Part shown: in pieces, positions 1-55,500 of the stretch
Layout: the number at the start of each line of letters is the position of its first letter
Numbering within the stretch: the first letter of the stretch is position 1
Notes under the pieces: generated by a model
Told to the model about the DNA's origin: nothing
The model's input: only the letters and a program-made list of their open reading frames with translations
Database searches by the model: none
Made by a program: the position numbers and the translations under genes
Origin: Candidatus Binatia bacterium
GTDB lineage: Bacteria > Desulfobacterota > Binatia > HRBIN30
Assembly (NCBI GenBank): GCA_044450645.1
Contig: JBIOJG010000030.1
Location: 47-64,046, forward strand
Direction: 5' to 3'
DNA: 64,000 bases

Positions 1-157
1 CAGCTTGTGGAGAACCGCTCCCCACAACCCCAACATACAAGTAGGTCCCATCGTCTCAGGGACCGTATCGAAGGGTGCCCGCCGGCTACCGGACTTCTTG
101 TGCAAAGCCGTCTTGAGTGCTGAGCCGGGACAACGAGATATTTTCACGACTCGGGAC

Positions 158-823
158 TCAGGAACTTCTTGTCCTGACACGGCGGCCGACGATTTCGAGT
201 CGGCCCTCGGTCCACAAGCGAATGGCCTCAGGGTAGAGTTCGTTTTCGAGCTGATGGACCCGTGCGGCCAACGTCTCGGGAGTATCGTCGTCCAGGACAG
301 GTACGGTGCCCTGCAGAATGATGGGCCCGGTGTCGTAATGGTCATCCGCGAAGTGGATCGTGCAGCCACTGACCTTGACCCCGGCTTCGAGAACGGCCCG
401 ATGCACTTTGTCGCCGTAGAAACCTTTGCCGCAGAAAGCTGGAATGAGGGCAGGGTGAACGTTGAGCACATGCCCGGCGTAGCGCCCGCGGAGTTGAAAC
501 GGGGAAAGGAAACCGGCCAGGATAATCAGATCGAATGCGTGGCGCTCCAGTTCGGCGTGCAGCGCATCGTTGAAGCCGTCAAGATCACTGAATTCCTTTC
601 GCGGCACCACCGCAACCGGAACGCCGGCATGGCGCGCCCGTTCTAAACCGCCAGCGTCAACCCGTGAGGAAATGACCACGGCGATCTTCGCGGACAAACG
701 GCCATCAGCGACGCGGTCGATGAGGTTCTGCAGTGTCGTGCCGCCGCCGGAAATCAAAACGGCAAGCCGCACCGGCGAAGCCGAGGAGTCCTGAGTCCTG
801 GGTCCTGAGTTCTGCGTGGTCAT
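158..823 (-). CDS. purN: phosphoribosylglycinamide formyltransferase
   Basis: 221 aa. N-terminal VRLAVLISGGGTTLQNL and HPALIPAFCG/DHYDTGPII motifs typical of GAR transformylase. Confidence 0.9.
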   Translation of the reverse strand: MTTQNSGPRTQDSSASPVRLAVLISGGGTTLQNLIDRVADGRLSAKIAVVISSRVDAGGLERARHAGVPVAVVPRKEFSDLDGFNDALHAELERHAFDLIILAGFLSPFQLRGRYAGHVLNVHPALIPAFCGKGFYGDKVHRAVLEAGVKVSGCTIHFADDHYDTGPIILQGTVPVLDDDTPETLAARVHQLENELYPEAIRLWTEGRLEIVGRRVRTRSS

Positions 824-18841: not shown

Positions 18842-19190
18842 AACGACTGCCGCCAAGCAAGGTGGTCCCCCACCCACGACTTCCCTGCGTATCGCTATCA
18901 TTTGTGTCGCCCCCGTTACGTCGTGCTGTCGTGCTGCGCCAGATCGTGACCTAATTGCCCTGGAGGGCGGTAGGCAATACGCGTGCCAGCGTGGACGGCG
19001 AGGCGGCCCTCGCGACCTACGAACGAACAGACCCGTGGTCTTCCGAGTCATGGGAAAACTCTTCTTGTGCGCCGGGGCAACCGCTGGAGTAGTACGAGCG
19101 AAAAGAGGCTAGAATTCCGCAAGACCGCCCGGTTGACTCGCCTGGTATCAGCCAGAGGGGGAGACGCGGATTCCGATTCCTAGTGCTTTT

Positions 19191-19502: not shown

Positions 19503-24549
<5,047 letters not shown>

Positions 24550-24553
<4 letters not shown>

Positions 24554-35072: not shown

Positions 35073-35295
35073 GCGTTGCCCGGATAGAAGAGGCCCTGCC
35101 CGAAGTCAACGCGCCATGGGCTCATTGGCCTGCTTGCCCGACCTTGGTGAGCCAGGCGTCCCCCGCGTGTGCAGGTTCGTTCAGCGCTGCAGCCATTTGT
35201 TGTTGATGGTCTTTTGCAGGTTGTGATAGCGATGGGTCCCATCCATGGAAGCCTGGGACAGAGCAGGCGCCGAGGCTCCTCACACATATGATCAT

Positions 35296-37833
35296 ATGAT
35301 CAATACGGGGCTCAGATTGGAGGGGGCCGACCCTCGGCATCGTCCACTCACGCGCGCCGGTACCACCGTCGCTGCCTGGGCGCTTGCCTTGGTTGCGCTG
35401 GGTTCGCCTTGGCGCGCAACCGCGCAAGGCATCGAGGGCACGACCTACGAGATGGAAAAGGTCACGCCGCAGGAGTTTCGCGGTAACGTGCGCAACCTGC
35501 CCAGGCTACCTCCCAGCCCCAAGATGTATCGACCCCTGCTGCGGGGACCACGTAGCACCAAAATATTTCCGAGCCGACCAACCACTTTTGAGTCAATCCC
35601 TGTCCCATTTTCCCTCCCGTTGGCGCAGATGCCCGGCCCGGTGGAAGACTTTGCCGGTCTGAGTTTCATCGACAGCTGCACCGGTGGACAGTGTGGCGCG
35701 GGCTGGCCTCCCGACCCGAACGGGGACGTGGGTTCGAACCATTATGTCCAAGCGGTCAACGATGCCTATGCCATCTACAGCAAAACCGGCACCCTGCTTG
35801 CCTCGTTCACGGAGGATCAGTTGTGGAGCGGTAGTGGAGCGAATCCCTGCAACGGTGATTCTCAGGGCGACACCGTTGTTGTGTACGATCAGCTGGCGGA
35901 CCGGTGGATTCTCACGCACTTTGCCTTCGCCACCGCTGGAAGCACCCCGGTCTCGCCGTTCTACGAGTGCATCGCGGTGTCGAAGACGAGCGACCCGGTT
36001 ACGGGCGGGTGGTGGCTGTATGCCCTGCGCATGGACCCAGGCGGCGCGGGCAAGCCTTCCATCAGTACAATGAACGATTATCCCAAATTTGGCTTGTGGC
36101 CCGATTGCCTGTACATGGCGGCCAATGGCTTCAGAGAACCGGGCGACACTTTCGTCGGGGTGGAGTATGCCTCATTCAGCCGCGGTGATCTGGAAAGTGG
36201 CGCCGCGCTGACATGGTCGCTGGGTGTTGTCAACAATGCGACGGACCCCTTCACCATGATTCCCAGCAACCTGTTGGGCAGCTCACCGGGCACGCTGCCC
36301 CCACCCGGTACGCTGAACTACTTCGTCTCCGAATCGCAAACCACGTCGGCCTTCGAGGTGAGAACATTTGCGCCGGGCGGCAACTGTGGTGCTGGCGGTA
36401 CGCTCAGCTCCGCGACGAATGTGAGCCAGACGACCTATTTGGGCACGCCCGGCATGAACGTGCCTCAGCCCAATACGACGAACCGGATCGATGCGATCGA
36501 CGACCGCCTGATGCAAAAGGTGCAATATCGCAAAGTCGGGAGCGCCGAATCGCTGTGGGTTGTTCATTCGGTCCAAACCTCATTCAGCGCTGCGGTGGCA
36601 CCGCAGTGGGCCCAGATCGATGTCACTGGGGGCACGATTGCTACAACACCGGTTCAGCAACAAATCTATGCACCCGATACGACCCTCTATCGCTGGATGG
36701 GTAGCATAGCTGCCGACAGCGAGGGCAACGCGGCGCTCGGCTACAGCACCTCGAATGGTACCGCGCCGAACTACCCCAGCATCGCCTACTCCGGGCGCCT
36801 CGTGGGCGATCCGCTCAATCAGCTGCCGCAAAGCGAAGTCAAACTGATCGACGGGGAAGGCTCGCAAACTAATAGTTGCAGTGGCATCCCATGCGGCCGC
36901 TGGGGCGATTACAGTGCAATGAGTGTCGATCCAGCCGACGACTGCACCTTCTGGTACACCAACGAGTACTACAGCAGCCAAGCGAACGGCAATAGTGGGA
37001 ACTGGCAGACACGCATCGGCTCGTTCAAGTTCCCGTCTTGCGGCAGCGCCGCGCCGACCAGCACCCCGACAAACGTACCCACGGACACCCCGACCGATAC
37101 GCCGACTCAGACGCCGACAGTCACGCCAACGAGTACTCTGACCGCAACGGAAACCGCGACACCGACCAATACGCCGACGGAAGCCGCGACGGCAACACCA
37201 ACAAACACGGCAACCGTGGCTCCGACCGACACGGCGACGCCGACAGCAACCGCAAGCGTGACGAATACCGCGACGGACACGCCGACTAATACCCCAACGA
37301 GCACAGCAACAGCGACTGTGACGAATACGCCGACAACAACCCCGACGAGCACCCCGTCGGACACGCCGACCAATACCCCGACTGACAGTCCGACCGTCAC
37401 CACCACCCCAACAGTTACGCCGACGAGTTCGCCTACCGATACACCGACCACTACCCCAACTCACACACCGACCGTAACGTCGACACAGACGTCCACTCAG
37501 ACACCAACCGCCACAGCAAGCGCGACGCCAACGCTAACGGCAACAGCGACCGGGATGCCGACGCCTACTTCCACAGCCACGGCGAGATCGACTCCGACTG
37601 GCGTCGCTACTCCAACCGCGACACCTACGGCCACGGCGACATTGGTCGCGTGCGTCGGCGACTGCAATGGAAGAAGGACGGTGACTGTGGACGAGATCCT
37701 TATCATGGTGGATATTGCGCTCGGCAACGCGCCGCTTCACTTGTGCAATTCCGGCGATGCGAACGGAGACGGACGGATAACGGTCGACGAGATTCTGAGC
37801 GCGGTGAACAATGCCCTGAACGGATGCCCTTGA
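35296..37833 (+). CDS. secreted protein: about 600-aa unknown domain, Pro/Thr linker, C-terminal dockerin-like module
   Basis: Signal peptide [22 protein letters not shown]. The unknown domain is Cys- and Trp-rich ([25 protein letters not shown]). TPT-repeat linker of about 190 aa. C-terminal [25 protein letters not shown]...[29 protein letters not shown]. Confidence 0.7.
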
Positions 37834-40344: not shown

Positions 40345-42174
40345 TTGCAAATGGACGGACGGAAGCGCATGAGAGGTCGAGTCAGCTTTTGCATGATGTC
40401 TAGGGATCAACGCTTTCGGCATCGCGCACGGGGCATCCTCCTTGTGTCCGTGGTATTCCTGTCATGCATGAATATGGCGGTTGCAGCAGAAGTGCTCCCC
40501 GGCGACGCGGACTGCGACGGCGGAGGAATCGGCGCCGCTGACCTTGTTGCCCTCGAGGACGCCATCTTCTCCGGCAGCGACTGCGCCGGCGCGGACGTGA
40601 ACCATGACGGCGCAGTGACGGCAGCTGACCTGGTGGCGGAAATGGTGTTGCTGGTTCCGCCAACGTCGACCCCAACGCTGACACCGGCACCGTCGGTCAC
40701 CCTGACGCCAGTCCCTTCAGTCACGAACATCCCATCTCCCACGCCGTTTCCTACTGCCACCGTCTCGGCGACGCCGACGATCACGTTGAGCCCTACGATC
40801 ACTGGTACGCCTACGGTGAAAGGGTCACCGACCCGCACGTTCACGCCATCGCGGACGGCGACCCCATCTGCGACACCCACGCGTACGCTCCGGCCCACGC
40901 CCACGATCACCTCAACCTGGACCATTCCGCCGTCACCTACTCGCACAGCGACGCTCACGCCAACACCAACCCGTACGCCAACCTCAACCCGCACGCCGAC
41001 GGTGACACCTACGTCTACTCCGAGCCCCACACCAACTTCCACGCCGACGCTCACTGGGACGCCGACGCCGACGAAAACGGCCACTGCGACCGCCACGTCC
41101 ACCGCCACGCCAACGGTCACGCCGACTTCCACCGCGACCCTAACGTTCACGCCGACGCCGACTTTCACCGTGACCCCGACGTGGACCGCCACCCGAACGT
41201 CGACCGCGACGCGGACCCCGACCGAGACTGCGACAAACACCGCGACGCCGACGCCGACGCCGTCTCAGACCGCAACCGGTACGGCGACCGGGACGCCGAC
41301 GCTCACGGCCACGCGGACATTCACCGCGGTGCCGACGGCGACGGGGACCTACTCGCCGACGTTGACACCGAGCGTGAGCCCGACGCGAACATCGAGCCCA
41401 ACGGTGACCTCTTCCCCCACGACCAGTGCGACGCGGACTTTCACCCCGAGCTTTACAGCGACGGTCACGGCAACAGCGACGGCCACGGCAACACTGACGC
41501 CGACGGGGCAGGGTCCGATCATCACGTTTTTCGGAGTCCTGACGAGAGCGGATGGCTGTATTTCCTGCTGTGACGTCAGTTGCGCCAACACACCGACGCC
41601 CACGCCGTTCTTTGATGACCAGGGCCGCCGCATTTTTCAGGTCGACGGCGGTATCCTGAATATCGTCGTCGAGGGCGGCAAGGGGCTGAGTACAGCGGAT
41701 GTAGCGACATCACTGCAACCGAGCCCCCCGGACAATCGACCCGACCTTCAGATCGAGGCCACGCAAAGCCTCGGCGACGGCAGCCCTGCAGTATGCGACA
41801 TCGGTCCCACCTCAGCGGGAGGCGGCGGTGTTCCCGGGATAGTGCCGCCCGATTTTACACTTGAACCGAACCCGGGGCCGACGCCGGGGACGATCTCCGG
41901 GGCGCTGGCCGATTTCGCCTGCCGCTTCAGCTACCAAGCACCAGGTTTCCAATGCACCTACTGGGACCTGGCGACGCCGGGGTATGCCGGCCCGGGAAGT
42001 TCCGCTCAGTTCTGCGACCAGACGGATGCGAACGCCGCGTTCAATCCGGGAGACTCGATTTTGACGGTGCGGTTGCGTGACGTCAACGGCAACACCGGGC
42101 CGACGGCGCAGATTGTGGTCCGAGTGAACACGCCAAGGCCGACGCGAACGCCGACGCAAACGCCGACGCCGTGA
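40345..42174 (+). CDS. secreted protein: N-terminal dockerin-like module, about 250-aa Pro/Thr linker, C-terminal unknown domain (paralog A)
   Basis: Signal peptide ([20 protein letters not shown]; start likely an internal Met near 40393). [25 protein letters not shown]...[23 protein letters not shown]-terminal domain with [10 protein letters not shown] and [14 protein letters not shown]. Confidence 0.7.
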
Positions 42175-42282: not shown

Positions 42283-44568
42283 ATGCTGCGTTCTGGTGTC
42301 TCGCGCGCGAGCGGTCTTCGTTATCACGGTGCGAGCCTGGTGGTCGTGGCCTTCCTGTGCATGTGGGCGTGCGGCTCAATCGCCGCGGCCACGACCTTGC
42401 CGGGGGATGCGGATTGCGATGGCGATGCCTTGGTCGATGCGACTGATGTCGCCGCTGTTGTTGCCGCGATCTTCGAGGGCAGTTCGTGCGCCGGTGCGGA
42501 CGTCAACGGTGACGGGGTGCTCTCGGCTGCGGACCTTCCCGCCGAGGTGATGGCGTTCGCTGCTCCGCCATCTGAGACGCCGACAGTTACGCCCAGCCCC
42601 GGCCTGACGCCCTCGCTGACGGCGACCGCAACCGTAACGCCGTCGCCCACGCTTTCACCTTCGCCTGTCACGCCGCCGTCTACCGCGACATGGACTGTCA
42701 CCCCATCAATCACGCCAACCTTCTCCGTGACCTCAACGCCGTCCAATACGGCGACGCACGGGCCGAGCCAGACACCGTCGTTGACTGCCACCGCGTCGCG
42801 GACACCGACCTTCACAACGTCGCCCTCGCCGAGCACCACTCCAACGTCAACCGCAACTGCGACCCGGACACCCAGCCCGACGCGGACGCCGACAGCAACG
42901 CCATCGCCGACCCCGACGCGCACGCCGACGGCAACTTTATCGCCGACCCCGTCCCGGACACCAACGTTCACCTTTACGTCGTCGCCAAGTGTGACACCGA
43001 CACCAACCCCAACCGCGACGCTGACGCCGAGGCCGACGCGCACGCCTACGGCGACGGCGTCGCCGACTATGTCCTGGACACCAACGTTCACTTTCACGTC
43101 CTCGCCAACTGCAACACCGACACCGACCCCAACCGCGACGCCGACGCCGAGCCCGACGCGCACGCCTACGGCGACGCCGACGCCAACGCCCTCACGAACG
43201 CCGACTTTTACGGCCACGCCCTCGCTGAGCCCGACTCCCACACCATCGCCAACCGACACCGGCACGCCAACGCCGACGCCAACACTCACGTCGACACCGA
43301 CGCCGACACCCTCCCGGACGCCGAGTTTCACGTCTACGCCGTTCCCCACACTGAGCCCGACACCGACGTTCACGGTGACATTGACGCCAACGTCAACGGG
43401 AACTCCGACCGTCACGGCGACGCCGTCGCTGACCCCGACGCCGACGCTATCGCCCACCAGCACTCAGACGTTGAGCCCAACGCCGACTAAAACGCCTACG
43501 GCAACTCGGACAGCGACCTGGACACCGACACAGACGCCGACACCAACACCGACGTCATCGAACCCGGGGCCGCAGGTGCTCTTCTTTGGCATTACGAGCC
43601 CAGATGGGTGTCTGGCTTGCCCAGCCCCTGGATGCGACTGTGTCAGTTGGCCGACACCGACGCCGTTTGTCGGCCCGGGTCCTCAGATCTTTTCGGTTCC
43701 CGGGCAGTTCATGATTGTCATCGAGGCGACGCCAGGCACAAACGGTGTGCCGGTCTCGAAAGTCCCGTACGTACAGCCGGGATGCGGTCCGGGCGTTGGG
43801 CGTCCGGATCTGCAAATTGAGACCACCCGAAACATGGGAACCGCCAGCACCCCATTGTGCAGTCTGGACGGGAGCATCACTCAGCTCGGATACATCCCGG
43901 GCATTCCGACGCCCAGCTTCGGCCCGGATACAGGCCCGACCCCCACGATCACGAACGCGCTGCAAAACTTCTCCCTGACGTTCACGTACCATGACCCTCT
44001 CACCGGTCCATGCACCAAGGATGCCGGAGGCAACGACGCGTATTTCCACGCAGGCGCGACGCAATTCTGCAGCGACCAAATCACTGGGGCTCAGAGCTTC
44101 CCTCAGGGCGAGTCGTTGCTCACTCTCCAGGTGCTCGATGCGAACCATAACCCCGGGCCAACGGCACAGATCATCGTGCGGGTACCAACCTGGACGCCAA
44201 CTCCGACCATAACGCCCACACAGCCCACGTCTACAGCCACGGCAACGCAACCGTCCGCAACTCCTACCGTTACCTTTACGCCGACGATGACAGGGACCCC
44301 GACCGGCACGCCAACTGCGACGCTGGCGTCAACGCTCACCGCGACGTCGACGGCGGCGTCTACGCTTACTCCCAGCGTGACGCCGACGCAGACACCAACT
44401 AGCACGCCAACTGCAACGTCATCACCAACGCTCACCGCGACAGGGGTGGCGACGCCGACGCCTACCGTGACGCCTACACCGTCAGCAACCCCGACGGCCA
44501 CGGAAACCCCAACGCCGTTTCCCACGGAGACGTTCACTCCTGGCCCGACGCCGACCAACACGCCTTAG
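42283..44568 (+). CDS. secreted protein: N-terminal dockerin-like module, Pro/Thr linker, unknown domain, second Pro/Thr tail (paralog B of 40345)
   Basis: Signal peptide. [26 protein letters not shown]...[22 protein letters not shown]. Shares [10 protein letters not shown] and [14 protein letters not shown] with paralog A. Confidence 0.7.
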
Positions 44569-44746
44569 CACGGCAAGAAGCCGCCGGATGCCGTCAAGGA
44601 GCCGAAAAAGGTGGTTTTTTCAAATAATTTGGGGTTTACTATTGACTAGTTTTGGCGAATACGGCATACGAGAAAGCGGTTTAGTCCGGGACCGAAGACC
44701 GGTCTCGTTAACAGTAGACGCTGGAATTGCCGAAAGGAGGCGTGCG

Positions 44747-46183
44747 ATGCGTGGATCAAAGCGGAGTCCTTGGCTGTTTGGCCTTGGGGTACTGCTCGCT
44801 GTCCTGGTGGTGTATGGAGGGCATGCCCGAGCCGACGTGACCACCGATCGATCTGGTTCAATCATTGTGTTTCCCAAAGTGGTGGCGGATGGCACACGGG
44901 ATACCATCATCCAAATGGCAAACACCTCTAACACGCAGACCACCGTGCACTGCACGTACGTCAACGCAGCCGGGTTCTGCAGTGTGACGACCACAACCCC
45001 GTGCGATCTCGATTCCGACTGCAGCACGGGCGAACTGTGCGTTCACCAATGTCTCGATCATAACTTTGAGATTTTTCTAACGGCGCAGCAGCCGACGTCA
45101 TGGAGGGTCAGTGCCGGCCGTGACTCCTTCCCGTTTGGGGGTCTGTCGGTGCCGCCGATGTTTGGCGGCACGAGCCCGAGCCCGTTTGTGGGCGAACTGA
45201 AGTGCGTCCAGGTTGACGGCTCGGGTGCGCCTGTCGGCCAGAACTCGCTCAAGGGCGAAGCGACCCTCTTCAGCGTCGCAGCTGGCCAGAAGTTTGGGCA
45301 GGTCAGCGAATACAATGCAATCGCCATTCTGGGGAACGGAGCCGGGTTGTCTGCACATAGCAACGTGCTCAACCTCAACCTCGCTGGCACCTGTCTGGCC
45401 GGTCCGAACATCGGACTGGCTTGCTCGGTCGACACGCAAGCGTCTGACTGTCCCGGTAGCACCTGCACCTTCAATGCTTTGGGTGAGTTCAATGCGTGTC
45501 CGAACAGCCTGGTGGTGAATCACTACGGTGATGGTGCCACCGATAGTTTCACCGGTGCGGACGTGAATACCGAACTGACGCTGGTTCCGTGCACGGAGCT
45601 TCTGGAGCTGGTGCCGACACACGCCCTGGCGCAATTCCAGATTTTCAATGAGTTCGAAAACAAGCTGAGCGCCAGCATAGACTTTGACTGCCTTTTGAAT
45701 CGGCGGTTGAGTAACATTAGCAGCCAGTTCACTGCTGGTACGATCGGCTCCGACTTTGCCAAGACGCGTATTTCACCGGCGGCCGGCAGCATCTGCTACA
45801 CTGGCGACAATCGGTGCCATCTCTGTACGCTTGGCGACACCGACCTTCAGTGTAACCCGGTGGGTGGGACGCCGCTGCCGGTAGGGGCGCTCGTGGGTAA
45901 CTGTGACTGCAACGCCGGCAACCCGTGCGTGAACCCGATCGGCGTCGGAACATGCGCCATAAGCGGGGCCAACTGTCAGAATGCTGGAGACTGCCCCGGT
46001 GCCGGAGACTCCTGCACCATCACGAACACCTTCGGGTGTATGCCTTGGTCCGGGCTACTTGGCGTAGCGGAGGAATTCCAGCAGCCTGTCGGTACGGGGT
46101 CCGTACCCGGTACGGCAGCGGTGAATGTGTATGTGGAAGGCAGTCGCCCAGGCGACGTCATTGTCCTGCCGCCGGTGCAGTAA
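44747..46183 (+). CDS. secreted Cys-rich protein, unknown family (paralog 1 of 4)
   Basis: SD aaaggagg 6 nt upstream. Signal peptide ends ARA|DVTTDRSGSIIVFPKVV. Shared family motifs: GELKCVQVD...LKGEATLF, TELTLVPC, QFQIFNEFENKLSASIDFDC, KTRISP. Confidence 0.75.
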   Translation: MRGSKRSPWLFGLGVLLAVLVVYGGHARADVTTDRSGSIIVFPKVVADGTRDTIIQMANTSNTQTTVHCTYVNAAGFCSVTTTTPCDLDSDCSTGELCVHQCLDHNFEIFLTAQQPTSWRVSAGRDSFPFGGLSVPPMFGGTSPSPFVGELKCVQVDGSGAPVGQNSLKGEATLFSVAAGQKFGQVSEYNAIAILGNGAGLSAHSNVLNLNLAGTCLAGPNIGLACSVDTQASDCPGSTCTFNALGEFNACPNSLVVNHYGDGATDSFTGADVNTELTLVPCTELLELVPTHALAQFQIFNEFENKLSASIDFDCLLNRRLSNISSQFTAGTIGSDFAKTRISPAAGSICYTGDNRCHLCTLGDTDLQCNPVGGTPLPVGALVGNCDCNAGNPCVNPIGVGTCAISGANCQNAGDCPGAGDSCTITNTFGCMPWSGLLGVAEEFQQPVGTGSVPGTAAVNVYVEGSRPGDVIVLPPVQ

Positions 46184-46273
46184 GTAAGGGTGGCGCGAGG
46201 TGGATCGATGAAGTCGAATGTGTCTCGCAGGAAACCCTGGGTCGCCCGCGAGTGGGACGAAAGGAGATGGGCA

Positions 46274-47515
46274 ATGGTGAAGATGACACGAGTTGCCTCG
46301 GTGACGACGCTGGCCGGACTCGCGCTGGGCATGTGGATGCTTGCGGCGCAGTCACCAGCAGAGGCCAAGACCACGTCGGATCAGGCCGCGGCCATACTCT
46401 ACTGGCCTAAGGTCGTCGTGGACAGCGCCAATCATACCGACACTTTGATTCGCTTGAGCAATACCAACACGAGCCTGCAGAAACAGGCGCACTGCTATTA
46501 TATCGATGCCAACAGTCACTGCTCCAATAACCCTAGTCAGGTATGCAACGGAAGCTGCTCTGGCGCGGGCGTGTGCCTCCAAGGCTGGGGCGAAATCGAC
46601 TTTGACATCGTCATCACCAGAGATCAGCCGCTGGCGTGGCACGCCAGTTCTGGGATGCATCACGGGCAGTTTCCGCTCGAGGTTCCTGGTGTGTGCAAAT
46701 TGGGACCTCCTTTCCCTTGCTCAGCCGACTTCCAGTGCCCTGCGGGCCCGGGGGGTGGCTGCCTGCTCCTGCCGAATAACATCGGCAGCGGGATCCCTCC
46801 CGTTGCGGAAGACCCGTTTGTGGGTGCACTGATTTGTGTGCAGTACGACCCGAGCGCAAATCCGCCAGCTCCGGACCAGAGCCTGACCACCGGCAATGCC
46901 CTGATCGGGGAGGCAACAATCGAGCGCGCGATCCCGGCGGCCGCTCCTGCTCCCGCGGGTGTGGACCTCGCGTCTTACAACGCGGTCGGCGTGAGGTATA
47001 AGGGTGGCGTCGAAACGGTGCCCCCTGGCGAGTTGCACCTCGACGGCGTGCAGTACGAGAGCTGCCCAACGACCCTGATTCTTGACCACCAATTCGACGT
47101 GGTTACAGGAACCGAGCAACAGGTGACCGATCTGACGCTGGTTCCCTGCGGTAATAATTTCCTCACGCAGACCCCAGGGTCAGTGACGGCGCAGTTCGTC
47201 ATCTTCAACGAGTTCGAGCAACGTTTCTCAACCAGCAATGGGGTGGACTGCTTCTTTGACAAGCAGCTCTCCAGGATCGATACCGTAGACCCGTCACGCT
47301 CGATATTCACGAGTTCGCAGGCTGGGACCGCTGTGGGCCAGACGCGTATCCGGCCCGTCAGCAGCGCCGCCACGGGTCGAGGGGTACTGGGGGTGGCGGT
47401 GTACAGGCAGCTCGGACCCACCGGCCTTGTTGGCGATGCGGCGTATGATCTGCACCAGAGTGGCAGTCTCGCTCCTGGTTCAGGAACACAGCCCGACGTC
47501 ATTACCATCCCGTAG
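46274..47515 (+). CDS. secreted Cys-rich protein, unknown family (paralog 2 of 4)
   Basis: SD aaggag 7 nt upstream. Signal peptide ...AEA. ILYWPKVVVDSANHTDTLIRLSNTNTS, GALICVQYD...LIGEATI, TDLTLVPC, AQFVIFNEFEQRFSTSNGVDCF, GQTRIRP. Confidence 0.75.
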   Translation: MVKMTRVASVTTLAGLALGMWMLAAQSPAEAKTTSDQAAAILYWPKVVVDSANHTDTLIRLSNTNTSLQKQAHCYYIDANSHCSNNPSQVCNGSCSGAGVCLQGWGEIDFDIVITRDQPLAWHASSGMHHGQFPLEVPGVCKLGPPFPCSADFQCPAGPGGGCLLLPNNIGSGIPPVAEDPFVGALICVQYDPSANPPAPDQSLTTGNALIGEATIERAIPAAAPAPAGVDLASYNAVGVRYKGGVETVPPGELHLDGVQYESCPTTLILDHQFDVVTGTEQQVTDLTLVPCGNNFLTQTPGSVTAQFVIFNEFEQRFSTSNGVDCFFDKQLSRIDTVDPSRSIFTSSQAGTAVGQTRIRPVSSAATGRGVLGVAVYRQLGPTGLVGDAAYDLHQSGSLAPGSGTQPDVITIP

Positions 47516-47577
47516 TCATTGGTGCCTGAGTGACGGGGGAGAGAGTTCAGGCCGGAATCCTAATAAGGAGGAAGCTC

Positions 47578-48978
47578 ATGAGGACGACCCAATGTGTGCG
47601 CGCCGGCTGGGTGATGGGTGCACTGGGAGCGTGCATGCTCGTGGCGGGTGCCGCGCGAGCGGACGTGACCACACAGCGTCCTGGCTCCATTCTGATTTTC
47701 CCGAAGGTTGTGAACGACGGGACGCGTGACACTGTTATCCAAATTACCAATACAAGCAACAGCTTGGACACGGCTCGATGCTTCTATCTTGCGGGCCAAC
47801 TGGGGGCGAACGGGCTGCCGCTTTGCTCTGAGACGGACTTCTTCATCAACCTCACGCGACAGCAGCCGACGATCTGGCGGGCGAGCACCGGCAGAGGCCA
47901 ATTTAGCTCGGATGGACTGTCGCCAGGTCAAGTTCCGCCCGTGCCGCTCGGCTTTACGGGCGCCTTGATCTGTGCCGAGGTCGATTCCAGCCTTGAGGCG
48001 CCGGTGGCGAAAAATGCCCTCAAGGGCGAGGCCACTCTGCTGTCGGCTACCAGCGATGACCAGAGTAAGTACAATGGCATCGCCTTCCTAGGCGGCGCAG
48101 CGAATGATGGCGATAACGTTCTCAATCTCGACAGCAGCGAGTATAACGCCTGCCCGGCCGGGTCGCGCGTAGATTTCATCGCGTCCGATGCCGAGGACCC
48201 GGTGATTGACAGCCTCGGGAACGCCGGCAGATGCAGCCTCGCGGGTGTCCTGACGGCTACGCCCTGCAACACCACCGCCAACTGCACCGGCGGCCAGATC
48301 TGCTCTACTGGCCAATGTAGCAACGGCGCGGCATGCAACGTTGATGCGGATTGCACGACTGGCACTTGTGCGCCGCTAACCGGGGTGACGACTAACGTAA
48401 CGGTCCTTCCGTGCAATCTCGATCTCAATGCGCTTGTGCCGACGGCTGTGTCGCTCGTGCTGAGCGGTAAGGACACCGAGCAGAGCACACTGAGCGGCTC
48501 GAAGACGATGTCCTGCTGGGAAAGCTTCGCGATCGATACCAGTGCAAGCTGCGCCGGAGGTTACGGACGGGTGTGCCTCACGCGGCCGAATACGACGTTT
48601 GCGAGTGTTGACATTACCTCCGGACGGGGCGGACCAGTGATTGCCGTGGCTGAGGCGTTTCACACGGACAGCGTAGGGCACACTTCCACGGCAGCTGTGA
48701 ACCTGCACGTCGAAGGCCAGTGCGTCGGTGCCTGCACGGCCCCGAGCCTGGGGGTTCCTTGCCTGACGTCTGCGGTATGCGGTGCGGGAACCTGCACCGG
48801 GGTAACCAGCATAGGCAGCGAGTGCAACAGCAACGCCGATTGCGGCGGTGGCCTGTGTTCCGGGCCACGGTTCTGCAGCGGCGGAACGGACGCTGGACAA
48901 GCGTGCACCGCTGATGCCAACTGTACCGGTGGCACGTGTCCGTTGCCAAGCGCACGAATTCATCTGCCTGGCGCATGA
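47578..48978 (+). CDS. secreted Cys-rich protein, unknown family (paralog 3 of 4)
   Basis: SD aaggagg. Signal peptide ARA|DVTTQRPGSILIFPKVVNDGTRDTVIQITNTSNS. GALICAEVDSS...LKGEATLL, TVLPCNLDL. Extra Cys-rich C-terminal repeats (CTG.TC). Confidence 0.75.
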   Translation: MRTTQCVRAGWVMGALGACMLVAGAARADVTTQRPGSILIFPKVVNDGTRDTVIQITNTSNSLDTARCFYLAGQLGANGLPLCSETDFFINLTRQQPTIWRASTGRGQFSSDGLSPGQVPPVPLGFTGALICAEVDSSLEAPVAKNALKGEATLLSATSDDQSKYNGIAFLGGAANDGDNVLNLDSSEYNACPAGSRVDFIASDAEDPVIDSLGNAGRCSLAGVLTATPCNTTANCTGGQICSTGQCSNGAACNVDADCTTGTCAPLTGVTTNVTVLPCNLDLNALVPTAVSLVLSGKDTEQSTLSGSKTMSCWESFAIDTSASCAGGYGRVCLTRPNTTFASVDITSGRGGPVIAVAEAFHTDSVGHTSTAAVNLHVEGQCVGACTAPSLGVPCLTSAVCGAGTCTGVTSIGSECNSNADCGGGLCSGPRFCSGGTDAGQACTADANCTGGTCPLPSARIHLPGA

Positions 48979-49047
48979 TGAGGTGCTGACATGGTGATGC
49001 GCGAGGGTGCGGTGGGTAGACGTTCATTGATTGAAAGGAGACGGGCG

Positions 49048-50370
49048 ATGGCGAACCGGGTACGGTCGAGTGCTCTCATCGGTGGTGTCGCGGTGGTTGC
49101 CGTCCTCCTGCTGATGGCCCAGCGTGGTCAGGCGCAGACGGTCGCGTCGGACCGAGCGGCTGGCTACGTTGTATTTCCGAAGGTCCTCGTGGACTCCACG
49201 GACATATTCACGCAGGGACGCAAGGTCGACACATTGATTCAGTTAACCAACACGGCGGAAGCTGCCGGCAGTGATACGGGATGCCGGGTGGTGGAATGCG
49301 TGTACGTGGACGCAACGATGCACTGCACAAACGACGTTACGCGACAGTGTCGGACCAGTGTGGATTGCGCTACGGGAGGAACGTGTGGACGGACCGATGA
49401 CTGGCAGGAGCGGAACTTTTTTATCACCCTGAGTGCCGGACAAGCGATCGGGTGGAGCGCAGATTCGGGGGCAACCCTGCCTGCCGACGCCGCCTGCGGA
49501 ACGACGTCGCAGACGATTCCCTTTGTGCCTGAGAAGTTCTTCATCGGCGAGCTGAAGTGCGTCGAGCTTCAGGCGCAGGACGGTCCACCGCTGAACGCGA
49601 ACGACCTCAAGGGTGAGGCGACGATTTACGAGGTGGCGACTGGAGTGACGCCCACAGGGGGCGTTGATGTACGGTCGTACAACGGTGTGGGTTTACAGGC
49701 GATCAAGACCGACCTGAGCACGCAAAGTGCGAGGTGCGTAGGTGGGACAAATCAAGGCACGGCCTGCACGGCGGACGCACAATGCCTGCCTACGGGGGTG
49801 GGTGTCTGTCTGCCGGTTTTGTGCCTGGGCTCGAATCCAGCGACGGGTGCTGTATGCGGCAGCTCGGCGCAGGCGTATGCCGGATGCCCAAGTACGCTGA
49901 TTCTGAATCACTGGTTTGATGGGGCGCTCAACCCGAAAACCGAGAATCCGATTACTACGGATCTGACGTTAGTGCCGTGTACCGAGGACTTGAGGAAGGT
50001 TGGCGCCGCCGCAACACCCGCAACGACGGTTCAGTTTCTAGTGTACAACGAGTTCGAGCAGCGGTTTTCCGCGAGTACTTCGGTCCGCTGCTTTAAGGAG
50101 ACGCAGCTTTCACGGATTGACACCCTGCCTGGGAATGACAGCGTATCGATTTTCAATTTCAGCGTTCAAGGTACGCTCACCGGGCAGACAAGAATTCGAC
50201 CGATCAACGGCACCGAGCTCGATAAGGGTCATGGCCTGCTCGGCGTTGCCGAGGAGTTTTCCAGGGGCAGTGGCCTCTTCCCGAGGGGCTCCGCGGCGTT
50301 CGATCTAGACTTCACAGGCACGCCGACCGGGAAGGCTGACGTCGTAACGCTTCACGTAAGTACGCCATAG
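49048..50370 (+). CDS. secreted Cys-rich protein, unknown family (paralog 4 of 4)
   Basis: SD aaaggag. Signal peptide. GYVVFPKVLVDS...DTLIQLTNTAEA, GELKCVELQ...LKGEATIYEV, TDLTLVPCTEDL, VQFLVYNEFEQRFSASTSVRCF, GQTRIRP, LLGVAEEF. Confidence 0.75.
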   Translation: MANRVRSSALIGGVAVVAVLLLMAQRGQAQTVASDRAAGYVVFPKVLVDSTDIFTQGRKVDTLIQLTNTAEAAGSDTGCRVVECVYVDATMHCTNDVTRQCRTSVDCATGGTCGRTDDWQERNFFITLSAGQAIGWSADSGATLPADAACGTTSQTIPFVPEKFFIGELKCVELQAQDGPPLNANDLKGEATIYEVATGVTPTGGVDVRSYNGVGLQAIKTDLSTQSARCVGGTNQGTACTADAQCLPTGVGVCLPVLCLGSNPATGAVCGSSAQAYAGCPSTLILNHWFDGALNPKTENPITTDLTLVPCTEDLRKVGAAATPATTVQFLVYNEFEQRFSASTSVRCFKETQLSRIDTLPGNDSVSIFNFSVQGTLTGQTRIRPINGTELDKGHGLLGVAEEFSRGSGLFPRGSAAFDLDFTGTPTGKADVVTLHVSTP

Positions 50371-50403
50371 GGATGAGTTAATTCGGGTTTGCTTGCCAGG
50401 AGA

Positions 50404-50438
50404 GGGGCCGGCCGCGCTTGCGACCGGCCCTTTCTTTT
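50404..50438 (+). terminator. rho-independent terminator after the paralog array (GGGCCGGCCGC/GCGACCGGCCC stem, TTTCTTTT)
   Basis: Stem of 7+3 bp with one mismatch, 4-nt loop, U-rich tail. Lies 34 nt after the paralog-4 stop. Confidence 0.45.
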
Positions 50439-50601
50439 GCGTAGGGCGCCGGCATTCGGCGCTCGCGGCGTTCATGGCAGACCGCGTGCGCTCGGTGCTG
50501 CGCAGCCCGGCAGGCGCTGTGTCGCAAGGGGAGGGGAGCGGCGCTGCGCTTCATGGGGCTAGGAATTAGAAGGTCGCTGTGTGCAAGCAGAGGCGCACGT
50601 G

Positions 50602-51000
50602 ATGGCACGGAAGAAGATCCTGGTCGTTGAGGATAATCTCGATAATCGCAGGATCCTCGTCTATCGGCTTCGTCGAATTGGAGATTTCGAGATTCTGGAA
50701 GCTGGGAACGGCATAGAGGCGTTGAGGTTGGTAGAGGGAGAAGTGCCTGACCTGATCTTTATGGATCTTAAGATGCCAGTTATGGACGGGTGGGAAGCAA
50801 CGAGGCGTATTCGTGCGGGTGGGGATGCGCGCCGGATTCCCATTATTGCGCTGACGGCTCAGGCGATGGCAGGGGATGAGCAGAAGGCGTTAGCGGCAGG
50901 CTGTGATGATTACGTTGCAAAGCCAATCGTTGACCCGGACCTGATCCGTGAGAAGCTTGAGCGTCTGTTGAACTGGGACGCTGCACTCCTGAAGGGGTAG
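50602..51000 (+). CDS. single-domain response regulator (CheY-like receiver)
   Basis: KILVVEDN...D, DLIFMDLKMPVMDGWE, ALTA...KPI receiver motifs. No output domain. Confidence 0.8.
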   Translation: MARKKILVVEDNLDNRRILVYRLRRIGDFEILEAGNGIEALRLVEGEVPDLIFMDLKMPVMDGWEATRRIRAGGDARRIPIIALTAQAMAGDEQKALAAGCDDYVAKPIVDPDLIREKLERLLNWDAALLKG

Positions 51001-51206: not shown

Positions 51207-51449
51207 TCAGACTTGGGGTACGGGTGCTTCGCTGTTGCCGTTCTTTCGAGCAAAGCCAGCCGTATGGTGGCCGTGCCGCTCGGCAAACTCAATTAGTGTC
51301 GCTCTTGCGAGTTTGCTCGGGCGAAAACGCCCGTTTTCCCAGCGGTTCACCGTGCCGACCGTGATGCCCAATTCATGGGCGAACTCCTCTTGGGTCATCT
51401 TGAGTTCACGGCGCAGGGCGCGAACGAATTCTCCTGCTTCTTCCAACAT
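51207..51449 (-). CDS. XRE-family helix-turn-helix transcriptional regulator
   Basis: LRRELKMTQEEFAHELGITVGTVNRWENGRFRPS is the canonical HTH_XRE. Confidence 0.75.
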   Translation of the reverse strand: MLEEAGEFVRALRRELKMTQEEFAHELGITVGTVNRWENGRFRPSKLARATLIEFAERHGHHTAGFARKNGNSEAPVPQV

Positions 51450-51653: not shown

Positions 51654-52787
51654 CTAGCTGCCGAAAAATCGGCGTTTGTCAGCTGGGAGGGCAACGCGGT
51701 ACTTCTCCTCGAGTAGCGCGGAGGGCAGGTAAGTGCGGTCAAGCGCCAGCCGGAGCCGCCACACTTGGTCGCATGCGCGTACGAGGGAAGTGAGCTGCTC
51801 GGGGAACAGACCCTGAAAACCATCCGATTTGGCGATCAGGGGGTTGGGATGTACCTCGACGAGCACGACCGAGGCGCCGGCCACAATACCCGCCAAGGTC
51901 ATCGGATGAACCAGGTCTCGAATCCCGGTTCCGTGCGAGGCGTCGACGGCAACCGGGAGCCCTGAGAGCTGGTAGTGGAAGGCGGCGACGCTGCCGAGAT
52001 CGAGTGTGTTTCGCGTGTAGCGATTGCAGGTCGTTATACCACGTTCGCACAGAATGACGTTTTCCTTCCCGCCGGACATGATGCGTTCAACCCAGAGGAG
52101 GTACGCTTCCGTGTCGAGGGAATTGCCGCGCTTGTGTATCACCGGCAATGGAGTGCTGCGCAGGCGGTTGAGCAGTGCCTGGTTCTTCGAATTGGGCTCC
52201 CCTACCTGCAGACAGTCGATGCCCGCATCCTCGTACAGCGGTACATCAGCGGGATCGAGGATCTCCACTACCGTGGGAAGTCCGTACTCCCGGCCAGCCT
52301 TGACGACCAGGTCTAGTCCTTTGCGGAGCGATTCGTGGTCGGCACCCACAAGTCCTTCCCACCCGCTGTACGGACTGGAGCGGTATTTGAGCACTCCGCC
52401 GCGCAGGGCTCTGCAACCGGCGGTCTTCACGATGCGAGCAGCCTCGATGATTTGGGCTTCACTCTCGACCGAACACGGTCCCCCAATCACTACAAGGTCC
52501 TGTCCCCCACATACCACCTGTCCGATAGCGACCCGCTGGTGCACCAAGTGGCCGGGAGAGCCTTTCTGGGCTGCCCGTTTGTAGGCTCTGGAGATCGGGA
52601 TCAGTACTTCGACCCCCGCCATCTCTTCGATTTCCCCACTCGGGAGTCGGCTGATGTCTCCGTAGACGCCGATCAGGGTGATCTCTTCGCCCACGAGGAT
52701 GCCAGTTTTGAAGCCAAGATCAGCCAAGCGATCCTCGATGGCGCGCACCTCATCGGTGCTACTGCCAGGTCGCATTTTGACTAGCAT
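51654..52787 (-). CDS. 3-deoxy-7-phosphoheptulonate (DAHP) synthase, class I-beta, with N-terminal ferredoxin-like regulatory domain
   Basis: 377 aa. Catalytic barrel motifs GPCSVES, KYRSSPYS, HKRGNS, CERGI, DASHG. About 90-aa N-terminal extension as in the Thermotoga-type enzyme. Confidence 0.85.
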   Translation of the reverse strand: MLVKMRPGSSTDEVRAIEDRLADLGFKTGILVGEEITLIGVYGDISRLPSGEIEEMAGVEVLIPISRAYKRAAQKGSPGHLVHQRVAIGQVVCGGQDLVVIGGPCSVESEAQIIEAARIVKTAGCRALRGGVLKYRSSPYSGWEGLVGADHESLRKGLDLVVKAGREYGLPTVVEILDPADVPLYEDAGIDCLQVGEPNSKNQALLNRLRSTPLPVIHKRGNSLDTEAYLLWVERIMSGGKENVILCERGITTCNRYTRNTLDLGSVAAFHYQLSGLPVAVDASHGTGIRDLVHPMTLAGIVAGASVVLVEVHPNPLIAKSDGFQGLFPEQLTSLVRACDQVWRLRLALDRTYLPSALLEEKYRVALPADKRRFFGS

Positions 52788-53276: not shown

Positions 53277-53582
53277 ACCATCATCCCTCCTACGATCTCG
53301 CTGCAGCGTGGTACGTCAGGTGTGTGGAGCAGCCCGGATCAAACTCAAGCCCGTCATCCCGTCAACTGAGGCCAGTTTTGCCGCAATTAGCTGACCAGGA
53401 GTGCGAACGCAAGCGCCGACCAAGGTCGCCCGCCGCCGTCCAAAAACGCACCAGCGTCAAATACTTTCCGTCAGCTGAGCCGCCCCAAAAGGATAACGAA
53501 GACAGCCGGGCGAATTCCTTCTCTGGCACACTGCTTGCCATGTCAAATGCTCCGTGCGGCCCGAAATTGGAGGAATGTCGTG

Positions 53583-54059
53583 ATGGATGGACGTAAGCCG
53601 GTTGTCATTCTCTTGGTGGAAGACGATGACGGTCACGCACGTTTGCTCGAGAAGAACCTGCGCCGGGCCGGTGTGGTGAACCGCCTGATGCGGGTGGCCG
53701 ACGGTCAGGAGGCCGTCGATTACTTCTCACGCGCCAGCTCATTTCAGGACAACAACGCCTACCCCCTTCCGAGCATTGTTCTCCTCGATGTGCGCATGCC
53801 GCGTCTTGACGGCTTCGAGGTGCTGGCCCATCTGAAAGGCGATCCGCAGTTGTTGAATATCCCTGTGATCATGCTGACGTCCACAGACAACCAAGCTGAG
53901 ATCAACAAGGCCTATCAGATGGGGGCCAACGGTTATGTCGTCAAGCCGGTGGGTGTCGAAGCCTTTATCGATCGCGTAGGGAAGCTGGGTATGTTCATCG
54001 AGGTCATCGAGTTCCCGGAAAATCATGGAAAGCAAAGTAGCGCAGCAGTCAGCGGGTGA
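53583..54059 (+). CDS. single-domain response regulator (receiver)
   Basis: VVILLVEDDDGHARLLEKNL, LLDVRMPRLDGFEV, MLTS...K receiver motifs. 3' end overlaps the next gene. Confidence 0.8.
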   Translation: MDGRKPVVILLVEDDDGHARLLEKNLRRAGVVNRLMRVADGQEAVDYFSRASSFQDNNAYPLPSIVLLDVRMPRLDGFEVLAHLKGDPQLLNIPVIMLTSTDNQAEINKAYQMGANGYVVKPVGVEAFIDRVGKLGMFIEVIEFPENHGKQSSAAVSG

Positions 54060-55500
54060 TATTCTCCTCGTCGAGGACGATCCCGGTCAGGCCCGTCTTG
54101 TCGAGAAGACGCTTACACGGGCTGGCTTACGGGTGAGCCACGTGCCGGACGGGAGTGCGTGTCTCGAACGGGTGCGGCGGCAGCCCCCGGACTTTTTACT
54201 GCTGGACCGTGGCTTGCCCGACGGAGACGGACTCGACGTGTTGCGGACGCTCCACGCGGAGTTTCCACAGGTGTGTGTCATCATGCTGACCGGCGCGGAT
54301 GACGCTACGGTTGCTGTCGACGCGATGCGCCTCGGTGCGTGGGATTACGTCGTGAAACGGCCCGACCTTTCCCACTTGAACGATCTGCGGCTGGTGCTGG
54401 ATCGCAATCGAGAGCGGCGGCGCCTGTTGCAGGAGCACGAGGCCCTCAATCAAGCCGTTCGCACCTCGGAAGAGCGATTCCGCGAATTGTTCAATAACGC
54501 CTCCGACGCGATCTTCGTGTGCGGCGACACCGGCGTGCTGCAGCAGGTCAACCAAGCCTTCGTCGACATCATCGGCCTCGACCGCGCGGAGATCGAGGGC
54601 AAGCATCTGGACAATTACCTCGCGCCCACCACGCTGACCCGGACGCAAGATCTACGGGAAGGCAGCCTGCGGGCGGAACGGCAGCCAGCCACGGAGGTGC
54701 ACTTGGTTTCGAAAAGCGGCCGCACGACGGTTCTGGAAGTGACCACGCGACCGATGTCTGAAAAAGGGCAGGTGACCGGTTTCCAGGGGATTGGGCGTGA
54801 CGTGACCGAGCAACGCCAGATCGAGCAGATGAAGGCGGATTTTCTGGCGATGGTTACCCACGACATGAAAAACCCCGTCAGCATCATCGTTGGCTACGCC
54901 GAGATCCTGCTGAACGACAGCGCCCTCCATCCGGACTGGCACGAGATGCTGGTGAGCATCGACTCCAGCGCACGCGGCTTGCTGCACCTGATCACGAACT
55001 TCTTGGACCTTTCGAAGATCGAGGCTGGAGCCCTGCGATTACACCAGGTTGAGATCAGTATCAATGAAGTCTTGCACCACATCGTTCAGTTCGAGCATCC
55101 TCTGGCCCGCGCCAAGAATATCGAGGTCGTCGAGAATTTCCAGCCGGTGCCAATCGTGCACGTGGATCGCTCGCAGATGGACCGTGTCTTCATCAATCTT
55201 ATCGGCAACGCCATCAAGTTCACCCCTCGCGGCGGTCAGGTTCGCGTCGACACCTGCAGTCACAATGGCACGGTTGAAATTCACATTAGCGACACCGGGC
55301 CGGGTATTCCTCCGGAGCAGGTACCGCAGCTGTTTCGGAAGTATCAGCGCCTCTCGTCGACCAGTGGAGCTGACGGCACGGGGCTCGGCCTCTTCATCGC
55401 AAAATCAATGATTGAGGCGCACGGTGGGAGCGTGGCAGTAAAGAGCGTGCCGAATGCGGGTGCGACCTTCATTGTTGCGCTGCCGGCCACACGCCGCTAG
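54025..55500 (+). CDS. hybrid sensor: receiver domain - PAS - histidine kinase (HisKA + HATPase_c)
   Basis: DILLVEDD...LLLDRGLPDGDG receiver. PAS (EERFRELFNNASDAIFVCGD). H-box THDMKNPVSII. N/G1/G2 boxes (NLIGNAIKFT, DTGPGIP, GTGLGL). Confidence 0.85.
   Translation: MESKVAQQSAGDILLVEDDPGQARLVEKTLTRAGLRVSHVPDGSACLERVRRQPPDFLLLDRGLPDGDGLDVLRTLHAEFPQVCVIMLTGADDATVAVDAMRLGAWDYVVKRPDLSHLNDLRLVLDRNRERRRLLQEHEALNQAVRTSEERFRELFNNASDAIFVCGDTGVLQQVNQAFVDIIGLDRAEIEGKHLDNYLAPTTLTRTQDLREGSLRAERQPATEVHLVSKSGRTTVLEVTTRPMSEKGQVTGFQGIGRDVTEQRQIEQMKADFLAMVTHDMKNPVSIIVGYAEILLNDSALHPDWHEMLVSIDSSARGLLHLITNFLDLSKIEAGALRLHQVEISINEVLHHIVQFEHPLARAKNIEVVENFQPVPIVHVDRSQMDRVFINLIGNAIKFTPRGGQVRVDTCSHNGTVEIHISDTGPGIPPEQVPQLFRKYQRLSSTSGADGTGLGLFIAKSMIEAHGGSVAVKSVPNAGATFIVALPATRR

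Follow-up and report, generated by a model that had tools for sequence, protein, structure and literature searches.

Four consecutive open reading frames (ORFs) on the plus strand, at positions 44747-50370 of a 64,000-nucleotide stretch of a Candidatus Binatia genome (assembly GCA_044450645.1, contig JBIOJG010000030.1; this whole stretch is called the window below), encode mutually homologous, Cys-rich proteins of the secreted type (Table 1). A preliminary description, made from the letters of the window alone, had placed four same-strand homologous genes here, and this holds in full: the four products can be aligned over their whole length, and those of genes 2-4 are 36-41% identical to that of gene 1. 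Genes 1 and 3 belong to one subfamily, which we call A, and genes 2 and 4 to a second one, B, and the order of the array is A1-B1-A2-B2. The products of A2 and B2 are identical to the NCBI proteins ACHQ9S_16560 and ACHQ9S_16565, respectively, both of which are listed as "hypothetical protein" of a Candidatus Binatia metagenome-assembled genome (MAG). Every gene of the array is preceded by a Shine-Dalgarno (SD) sequence of its own (GAAAGGAG(G) or TAAGGAGG) at a distance of 6-8 nt from the start codon; such sites, with a spacing of 6-7 nt, had been noted before. The intergenic gaps had been given as 6-90 nt; they actually measure 90, 62, and 69 nt, and the value of 6 stems from an alternative upstream GTG. 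No unusual structure was found in the three gaps (folding z = -0.13, +0.54, and +1.45), and a single terminator, a hairpin with a U-tract, follows gene 4, where an intrinsic terminator had been described. Thus, one operon with one terminator is the simplest reading of the four genes. The earlier idea of an operon of diversified paralogs can be kept as far as the operon and the divergence are concerned, whereas the four equivalent copies have to be replaced by two alternating subfamilies.

The N-termini of all four proteins consist of a basic n-region, a hydrophobic core, and an AxA-type site directly ahead of a conserved block, in agreement with the signal peptides already assigned to them, and the proteins are predicted from these features to be exported via a Sec-type signal peptide. 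In the AlphaFold model of the gene 4 product, residues 5-30 are modelled with low confidence as a helix that stands apart from the fold, and an N-terminal hydrophobic segment is present in 94% of the sampled relatives (n=361). The mature proteins contain 26, 13, 28, and 17 cysteines (genes 1-4), which bears out their description as Cys-rich, and the four proteins are probably stabilised by disulfides. The parity of the cysteine counts was considered as a sign of intermolecular disulfides and dropped, as the result was mixed. Eleven residues reach a conservation of at least 85% in A as well as in B (D61, T62, N68, Q132, W136, N185, Y211, N212, Y277, E335, and E337), and so are five cysteines.

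None of the four proteins matched a family in Pfam or NCBIfam (E<=1) or in PHROGs or PADLOC (E<=0.01), and a sequence-profile search of the PDB at E<=10 returned 0 matches. As PHROGs and PADLOC gave nothing, there is no hint of a phage or defence origin. The sole matches below threshold were DUF7107 and Dickkopf_N in the Cys-rich stretches of the gene 3 product and a very weak TIGR04172 in the gene 2 product. The variable Cys-rich insertions and tails of the family (C..C....DC..GG.C) resemble small disulfide-knot repeats known from secreted proteins of deltaproteobacteria (TIGR02232 myxo_disulf_rpt; Pfam DUF4215 and DUF7107), and the relative P0231 carries a true TIGR02232 repeat. In the family, however, these elements are loop insertions or C-terminal additions, and the conserved core is unrelated to them. 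An internal duplication was not detected when the N-terminal and C-terminal halves were compared (hhalign probability 2.8%); only the small Cys-knot motif repeats.

Alternation of the A and B subfamilies in Binatia

The search for more copies revealed a large family. With the gene 4 product as the query, at least 1,250 relatives were found at E<=1e-3 (90% clustering), and when 1.84 billion representative proteins were searched with a profile, at least 1,676 clusters at 50% identity were obtained. All named relatives are "hypothetical", except for one "EB domain-containing" protein that owes its name to a Cys-rich insert. When one genome of each prokaryotic species was scanned, 205 stretches were confirmed, of which 80 loci were kept for the locus counts below. 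Nearly all of these 80 loci come from MAGs of Binatia. Other labels are few (Deltaproteobacteria, Myxococcales, Margulisiibacteriota, and one Mycobacterium bin) and look like old or mistaken bin names; the sample of the Mycobacterium bin also gave a Binatia bin. The family is confined almost entirely to the uncultured class Binatia, which is widespread in soils, peat, sediments, and groundwater, and all genomes of our analysis are MAGs. A single genome contains 10-14 or more family genes in 3-4 loci: MFD02416.bin.1.411 has four loci with 4+6+2+2 genes, and HRbin30 has arrays of 4+3+4 genes. We found no paper that describes the A/B family and none that joins Binatia and dockerin in the literature, and the family is without an earlier description. 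With so many copies per genome at syntenic sites throughout the class and no entry in the curated libraries searched, it makes up a sizeable part of an envelope or extracellular biology that has yet to be explained.

The arrangement of the genes follows a strict rule. At all 80 loci, the family genes form arrays on a single strand, with 2, 4, or 6 members; arrays with one or three members are mostly located at contig ends, and no complete array has an odd number of genes. When 239 members were grouped by average-linkage clustering, the deepest split separated the odd positions (A, n=117) from the even positions (B, n=122), and every complete two-, four-, and six-gene array obeys this split. 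Moreover, the distance matrices of the A proteins and of their B partners are correlated (Pearson r 0.82, 104 pairs), and the orthogroup of the nearest neighbour is the same for both partners in 97 of the 104 pairs. We conclude from the correlation and the orthogroup agreement that A-B pairs have been duplicated as units. Three array types recur, each in a syntenic setting of its own: the four-gene type of the window (25 loci), a second four-gene type (12 loci), and a two-gene type (31 loci).

The same order is found in single polypeptide chains. (i) The proteins P0171, P0252, and P0253 each join a complete A to a complete B and also contain a dockerin-like module, a Pro/Thr linker, and the so-called X domain that is introduced below. 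As they share only 48-49% identity with each other, an assembly artefact does not explain them. (ii) The large lipoproteins P0212, P0219, P0222, and P0246 end with the N-terminal domain (N-domain) of A only, followed by a full B. The reverse order, B then A, occurs in P0130 and P0200, where the signal peptide of the second protein is still inside the chain, and these two look like merged calls of neighbouring genes. That A precedes B in separate genes as well as in single chains is the main argument for a physical A/B unit, which we infer from gene order and sequence. The strict order, the duplication as a unit, and the fusions lead to the testable prediction that A and B form an obligate heteromer. 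In each pair of the window (44747-47515 and 47578-50370), A and B are in the same reading frame with a single stop codon between them; natural A-B fusions could stem from such an in-frame pair by loss of the stop, or the arrangement could be coincidental.

B-type relatives carry a variety of C-terminal additions: a dockerin-like module (P0234, P0248, P0231, P0236, and P0199), Cys-rich repeats of the myxo type, another domain of about 170 amino acids, or a Pro/Thr linker followed by a cysteine, a hydrophobic helix, and an Arg-rich tail. These additions point to display at the cell surface for some members at least. The tails of P0211, P0130, and P0200 (Pro/Thr linker, G-C, hydrophobic helix, RRRR) resemble a C-terminal sorting or lipid-anchor tag; an identity of such tails with MYXO-CTERM was not confirmed, as there was no NCBIfam match. 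The window itself also encodes a 976-amino acid protein with a beta-propeller of the YncE/lactonase type (21623-24553, plus strand). In other Binatia, a YVTN propeller of the same kind is joined via Pro/Thr linkers to the N-domain of A and a full B in lipoproteins that are 1,443-1,520 amino acids long (P0219 and P0222).

Fold of the N-domain and comparison with the ASRAH superfamily

The AlphaFold2 model of the gene 4 product, which was based on an alignment of 51 sequences, is all-beta and confident, with a predicted local distance difference test score (pLDDT) of 91.4 and a predicted template modelling score (pTM) of 0.88. In a Foldseek comparison with the PDB, this model had no global match (template modelling (TM) score <= 0.14), and TM1070 was matched with a probability of 1.00 and a target TM score of 0.71-0.74: the eight-strand beta-sandwich of the N-domain can be superposed on TM1070. 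Arrestins and a Pleurotus lectin appeared as matches with low E-values and were rejected (TM score <= 0.14), as they reflect the spurious pairing of two-sandwich proteins. According to the model, the fold is an N-terminal beta-sandwich of the TM1070/ASRT (ASRAH) type that is followed by a second all-beta region. For this C-terminal half (about 210 amino acids), no convincing solved counterpart was found. The preliminary description had spoken of an unrecognised family; this is correct with respect to the curated sequence families, and it is narrowed by the N-domain, which is similar in fold to TM1070/ASRT and thus not a wholly unknown fold.

The ASRAH superfamily was defined around ASRT and TM1070 with PSI-BLAST profiles (De Souza, Iyer and Aravind 2009; PMC2739507). 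For its domains, the binding of sugars or other small molecules was predicted, with gene context and a cleft of TM1070 as the arguments. TM1070 itself forms a tetramer, in which the dimer interface contributes to the walls of the cleft, further ASRAH families exist as dyads or tetrads, and secreted actinobacterial and amidase-fused branches have also been described (PMC2739507). The dyads and tetrads have their parallel at the gene level in the family studied here, with its strict A-B pairs, one to three per array, and its fusions of an A N-domain to a full B. The differences are equally clear: there is no detectable sequence similarity to the ASRAH proteins (ASRT, the sensory rhodopsin transducer of Anabaena, PDB 2ii7; TM1070 of Thermotoga, PDB 1nc7; Pfam ASRT), the domain has disulfide-knot insertions and is fused to the C-terminal half of about 210 amino acids, and the dyad is split over two paralogous genes instead of being repeated within one chain.

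The comparison can be extended to individual residues. The hallmark of the ASRAH domains is a near-invariant Asn at the end of strand 2. In the new family, N68, which is conserved to 95-97% in A and B, closes the predicted strand 2 (residues 58-68) and may correspond to this Asn. Counting back from N68, D61 and Q65 would be equivalent to H25 and C29, which contact the ligand in TM1070; D and Q hence stand at the presumed positions of the H and C of the ASRAH signature. ASRAH strand 1 starts with a conserved Trp, whereas our family has no conserved Trp in this strand and instead an aromatic residue ahead of the invariant P44 (F in 89% of the A and 44% of the B proteins). The set of conserved polar and aromatic residues including D61, N68, and W136 is consistent with a predicted binding site, and the strand with D61, Q65, and N68 offers an entry point for ligand screens. 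The structural link to TM1070/ASRT would extend a small and poorly understood fold superfamily to a large, secreted, and disulfide-rich branch. A non-significant local hhalign alignment places ASRT W10...YIPP...FISHETVCILN...VEITIYY on W136...IPP...F.GELKCVEVD...KGEATIY of the family (residues 126-221 of the gene 4 product, 49423-49710). The aligned region is the second four-strand repeat of the N-domain and not the first one, and it may be an echo of the internal repeat of the fold or a chance match.

Ligand binding, docking, and other possible functions

In the window, the array is preceded by genes for three secreted proteins with dockerin-like modules (35245, 40345, and 42283; Table 1). 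The products of 40345 and 42283 are paralogous and each has a signal peptide, and their X domain of about 200 amino acids has no family match. All three proteins, 35245 at its C-terminus, contain two tandem D-x-[DN]-x-[DN]-G calcium-binding loops, each followed by a helix, as read from the sequence. The Dockerin_1 (PF00404) scores are 22.7 bits for 42283 and 18.1 bits for 40345, and the Pfam cut-off is 22.9; the accurate term is thus dockerin-like. The module of 35245 has only a sub-threshold EF-hand match in Pfam, and modules of the same kind are fused to the A-B pair in P0171 and to B-type relatives; the related modules of the homologs likewise have EF-hand matches only, all below threshold.

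Two lines of evidence, gene fusion and synteny, suggest that a functional link between the window-type arrays and the X-domain proteins is likely. First, the X domain of 40345 and the C-terminus of the fusion protein P0171 share 32% identity (E 4e-14), and the fused gene P0253 lies beside genes for HolA, BrkB, and a family III CoA-transferase and near a REC-PAS-histidine kinase gene, all of which are also neighbours in the window. Second, a hidden Markov model of the X domain detected 44 ORFs in the loci, all on the strand of the array and all beside window-type arrays: they flank 22 of the 25 four-gene loci of this type and one truncated array, and no such ORF was detected beside an array of the second four-gene type (n=12) or of the two-gene type (n=31). 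In both of these types, housekeeping genes adjoin the array (class IV aminotransferase, GlnE, topoisomerase I, glutathione synthetase, UDP-glucose dehydrogenase, and an Fe-S/CCG protein), and no neighbour is common to all three types. The proposed association with dockerin proteins has thus turned out to be real for one array type, even though the Dockerin_1 scores remain below the threshold; as a general function of the family, dockerin binding is not established, since most arrays lie among housekeeping genes without a dockerin-like neighbour.

We favour the idea, to which we assign a probability of about 0.42, that the proteins form secreted, disulfide-stabilised A/B hetero-oligomers with ligand-binding, lectin-like N-domains of the ASRAH fold, which at this locus are coupled to the dockerin-like/X-domain proteins. 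A single transcription unit encodes two ordered pairs, A1-B1 and A2-B2, and each protein would be stabilised by disulfides after Sec-type export. A and B would then join through their N-domains to an A/B dimer, and here possibly to an A1B1A2B2 tetramer. As proposed for the ASRAH domains, a small ligand, probably a carbohydrate, would be bound in clefts on or between the sandwiches, either in the periplasm or on the cell surface. In the window-type arrays, the complex would work together with the co-encoded proteins that combine a dockerin-like module, a Pro/Thr linker, and an X domain.

Several observations weigh against this proposal. The relation to TM1070/ASRT exists at the level of the fold only: none of the four proteins matches Pfam ASRT at E<=1, and a comparison of the family profile with an alignment of ASRT and TM1070 gave an hhalign probability of 0.2%. 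As the sequence-level link fails, we regard the N-domain as structurally related to the ASRAH superfamily rather than as a proven member of it. That ASRAH domains bind ligands is in turn a prediction, not an experimental result, even for the founding members (PMC2739507). Moreover, the most conserved motifs (NEFEQRFS, GQTRIRP, and LLGVAEEF) are located in the C-terminal half and thus outside of the N-domain, and the strict alternation and joint duplication of A and B could reflect co-regulation instead of a complex. Finally, no chaperone, usher, sortase, or secretion genes are linked to the arrays in the neighbourhoods examined, and the A-B pair therefore looks self-sufficient.

Among the alternatives, the one that stands best, unlikely as it is, regards A and B as receptor modules, i.e. 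functional analogues of cohesins, for the dockerin-like calcium-binding modules encoded nearby, in an extracellular assembly similar to a cellulosome; the idea goes back to the preliminary description. In addition to the three genes upstream of the array, the X-domain proteins beside 22 of the 25 orthologous arrays and the fusions P0171, P0252, and P0253, one of them at the syntenic position, fit this idea, and B-type relatives with a dockerin-like module could polymerise head to tail in the fashion of scaffoldins. The locus has several traits in common with cohesin-dockerin assemblies (cellulosome scaffoldins and non-cellulosomal dockerin-like modules): its secreted proteins are beta-sandwiches, Pro/Thr linkers are long, two D-x-[DN]-x-[DN]-G loops occur per module, and the parts are shuffled by modular fusions. 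However, neither a sequence match to cohesin nor the nine-strand jelly-roll fold of the cohesins was found for the family, the modules score below the Pfam threshold, and the 12 other four-gene and 31 two-gene arrays do without an X-domain neighbour in their housekeeping surroundings. Moreover, dockerins are more typically borne by cargo proteins than by receptors, and family members often carry such modules. A broader version has the same low probability in our view: a Binatia-wide and hitherto undescribed extracellular assembly system in which ASRAH-fold A/B hetero-oligomers would be docking platforms, as non-homologous analogues of cohesins, for the many proteins with Cys-flanked dockerin-like calcium-binding modules on Pro/Thr linkers, and in which the operon of the window and the two genes upstream would be a core unit. 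The recurrent union with dockerin-like modules hints at modular surface assemblies beyond the classical cellulosome producers.

Next in order, and improbable, is a secreted carbohydrate-active enzyme, a hydrolase or lyase with a beta-sandwich fold, in which the two glutamates of the N-E-F-E motif, located in the C-terminal half, would serve in catalysis, with the N-domain as the substrate-binding module. E335 and E337 are 95-100% conserved in both subfamilies and, being two residues apart on a predicted strand, would face the same side, and many further polar and aromatic residues are conserved. On the other hand, no enzyme family was matched in Pfam or NCBIfam, genes for transporters or sugar catabolism are not linked to the arrays, and an E-x-E pair could equally bind Ca2+.

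We consider it still more doubtful that the proteins are the structural subunits of a Binatia-specific envelope, surface layer (S-layer), or matrix lattice made of A/B heteromers. The many copies per genome and their class-wide conservation at syntenic sites would suit a lattice, and so would the very strong SD sites and the near-invariant promoter and ribosome-binding block; surface display is suggested by the relatives that end with a Pro/Thr linker, a cysteine, a helix, and an Arg-rich tail or that form the end of large lipoproteins. S-layer proteins are usually poor in cysteine, whereas the proteins studied here have 13-28 cysteines. The four proteins of the window lack an anchor, and no S-layer, SLH, or other anchoring family was matched by them in Pfam and NCBIfam, nor by the relative P0211. 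The suggestion of a surface-layer or matrix family in the preliminary description has found no positive evidence.

The least probable reading, four independent monomers that arose by tandem duplication and diverged, for instance to different ligand specificities, can appeal to the single-chain model of the gene 4 product, which is compact and confident without a partner (pTM 0.88); against it stand the odd/even separation in every complete array (104 pairs), the duplication of pairs as units, the recurrent A-then-B fusions, and the lack of complete arrays with an odd gene number.

Expression signals and further features of the window

The promoter-like site upstream of A1 was missed by a consensus scan because its -10 box lacks the final T. 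The -35 box TTGACT (44642-44647) is the same or nearly the same in 19 of 20 aligned orthologous leaders, and a (C/G)ATA box 17 nt downstream of it is present in most of the 20. A hairpin of the form GGGnnC...GnnCCC recurs at the same place in most orthologous leaders; its RNAalifold support is weak (3 pairs, 2 with double changes), and Rfam had no match in the window or in the leader. Downstream of the hairpin lies a near-invariant ribosome-binding block, CCGAAAGGAGGCGTGCGATG. In the leaders, the 20-nt block CCGAAAGGAGGCGTGC(A/G)ATG is near-invariant, and the encoded proteins are far more diverged. The set for this block comprised the window (44641-44746) and the loci L003, L004, L006, L007, L011, L013, L015, L018, L020, L025, L029-L031, L035, L046, L050, L059, and L067. 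The conserved leader may be a cis-regulatory or stability element.

Table 1. Genes, protein regions, and expression signals of the A1-B1-A2-B2 array and its surroundings (positions in the window)
Feature	Position (nt)	Residues (aa)	Strand	Remarks
Secreted protein	35245-37833		+	~540-aa unassigned N-terminal region, ~200-aa Pro/Thr linker, C-terminal Cys-flanked dockerin-like module
Secreted X-domain protein 1	40345-42174		+	Signal peptide, dockerin-like double Ca-loop module, ~300-aa Pro/Thr linker, ~200-aa X domain; true start probably an internal ATG
Secreted X-domain protein 2	42283-44568		+	Dockerin-like module, Pro/Thr linker, X domain, Pro/Thr-rich tail
Promoter-like site	44641-44670		+	-35 box (C)TTGACT 44641-44647, 17-nt spacer, -10-like CATACG 44665-44670; read from the sequence
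Leader hairpin	44688-44706		+	7 bp, GGGACCG / AAGAC / CGGTCTC, in a ~70-nt 5' leader
Gene A1	44747-46183		+	478-aa A-subfamily precursor, signal peptide ~29 aa, 26 Cys in mature part; ORF and SD site
Gene B1	46274-47515		+	413-aa B-subfamily precursor; NEFEQRFS and GQTRIRP motifs typical of B
Gene A2	47578-48978		+	466-aa A-subfamily precursor; additional Cys-rich C-terminal tail (sub-threshold DUF7107)
Gene B2	49048-50370		+	440-aa B-subfamily precursor
B2 signal peptide		1-29		
B2 N-domain	49144-49725	33-226		TM1070/ASRT fold
B2 C-terminal half	49726-50367	227-440		
Intrinsic terminator	50404-50438		+	GC-rich hairpin, then UUUCUUUU; dG -29.6 kcal/mol, z -3.46
Stand-alone receiver gene	50581-51000		+	Pfam Response_reg; conserved downstream neighbour, on the strand of the array in 22 window-type loci (median distance 145 nt)
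XRE regulator	51207-51449		-	
DAHP synthase	51654-52787		-	
Second receiver	53535-54059			
REC-PAS-histidine kinase	54025-55500			

In the clustering, A1 groups with the odd-position genes, in the orthogroup of the first genes of window-type arrays. The stand-alone receiver gene is not part of the operon because it lies beyond the terminator. Opposite the Pro/Thr linkers of the two X-domain proteins, there are long antisense ORFs with G/V repeats (40407-41240, 42324-43463, and 44103-44561, all on the minus strand); these are by-products of the repetitive ACN/CCN coding and not genes. Finally, the minus strand at 14174-19051 contains an ORF of 1,625 amino acids with three proprotein-convertase P-domains, which probably encodes another large secreted or surface protein.

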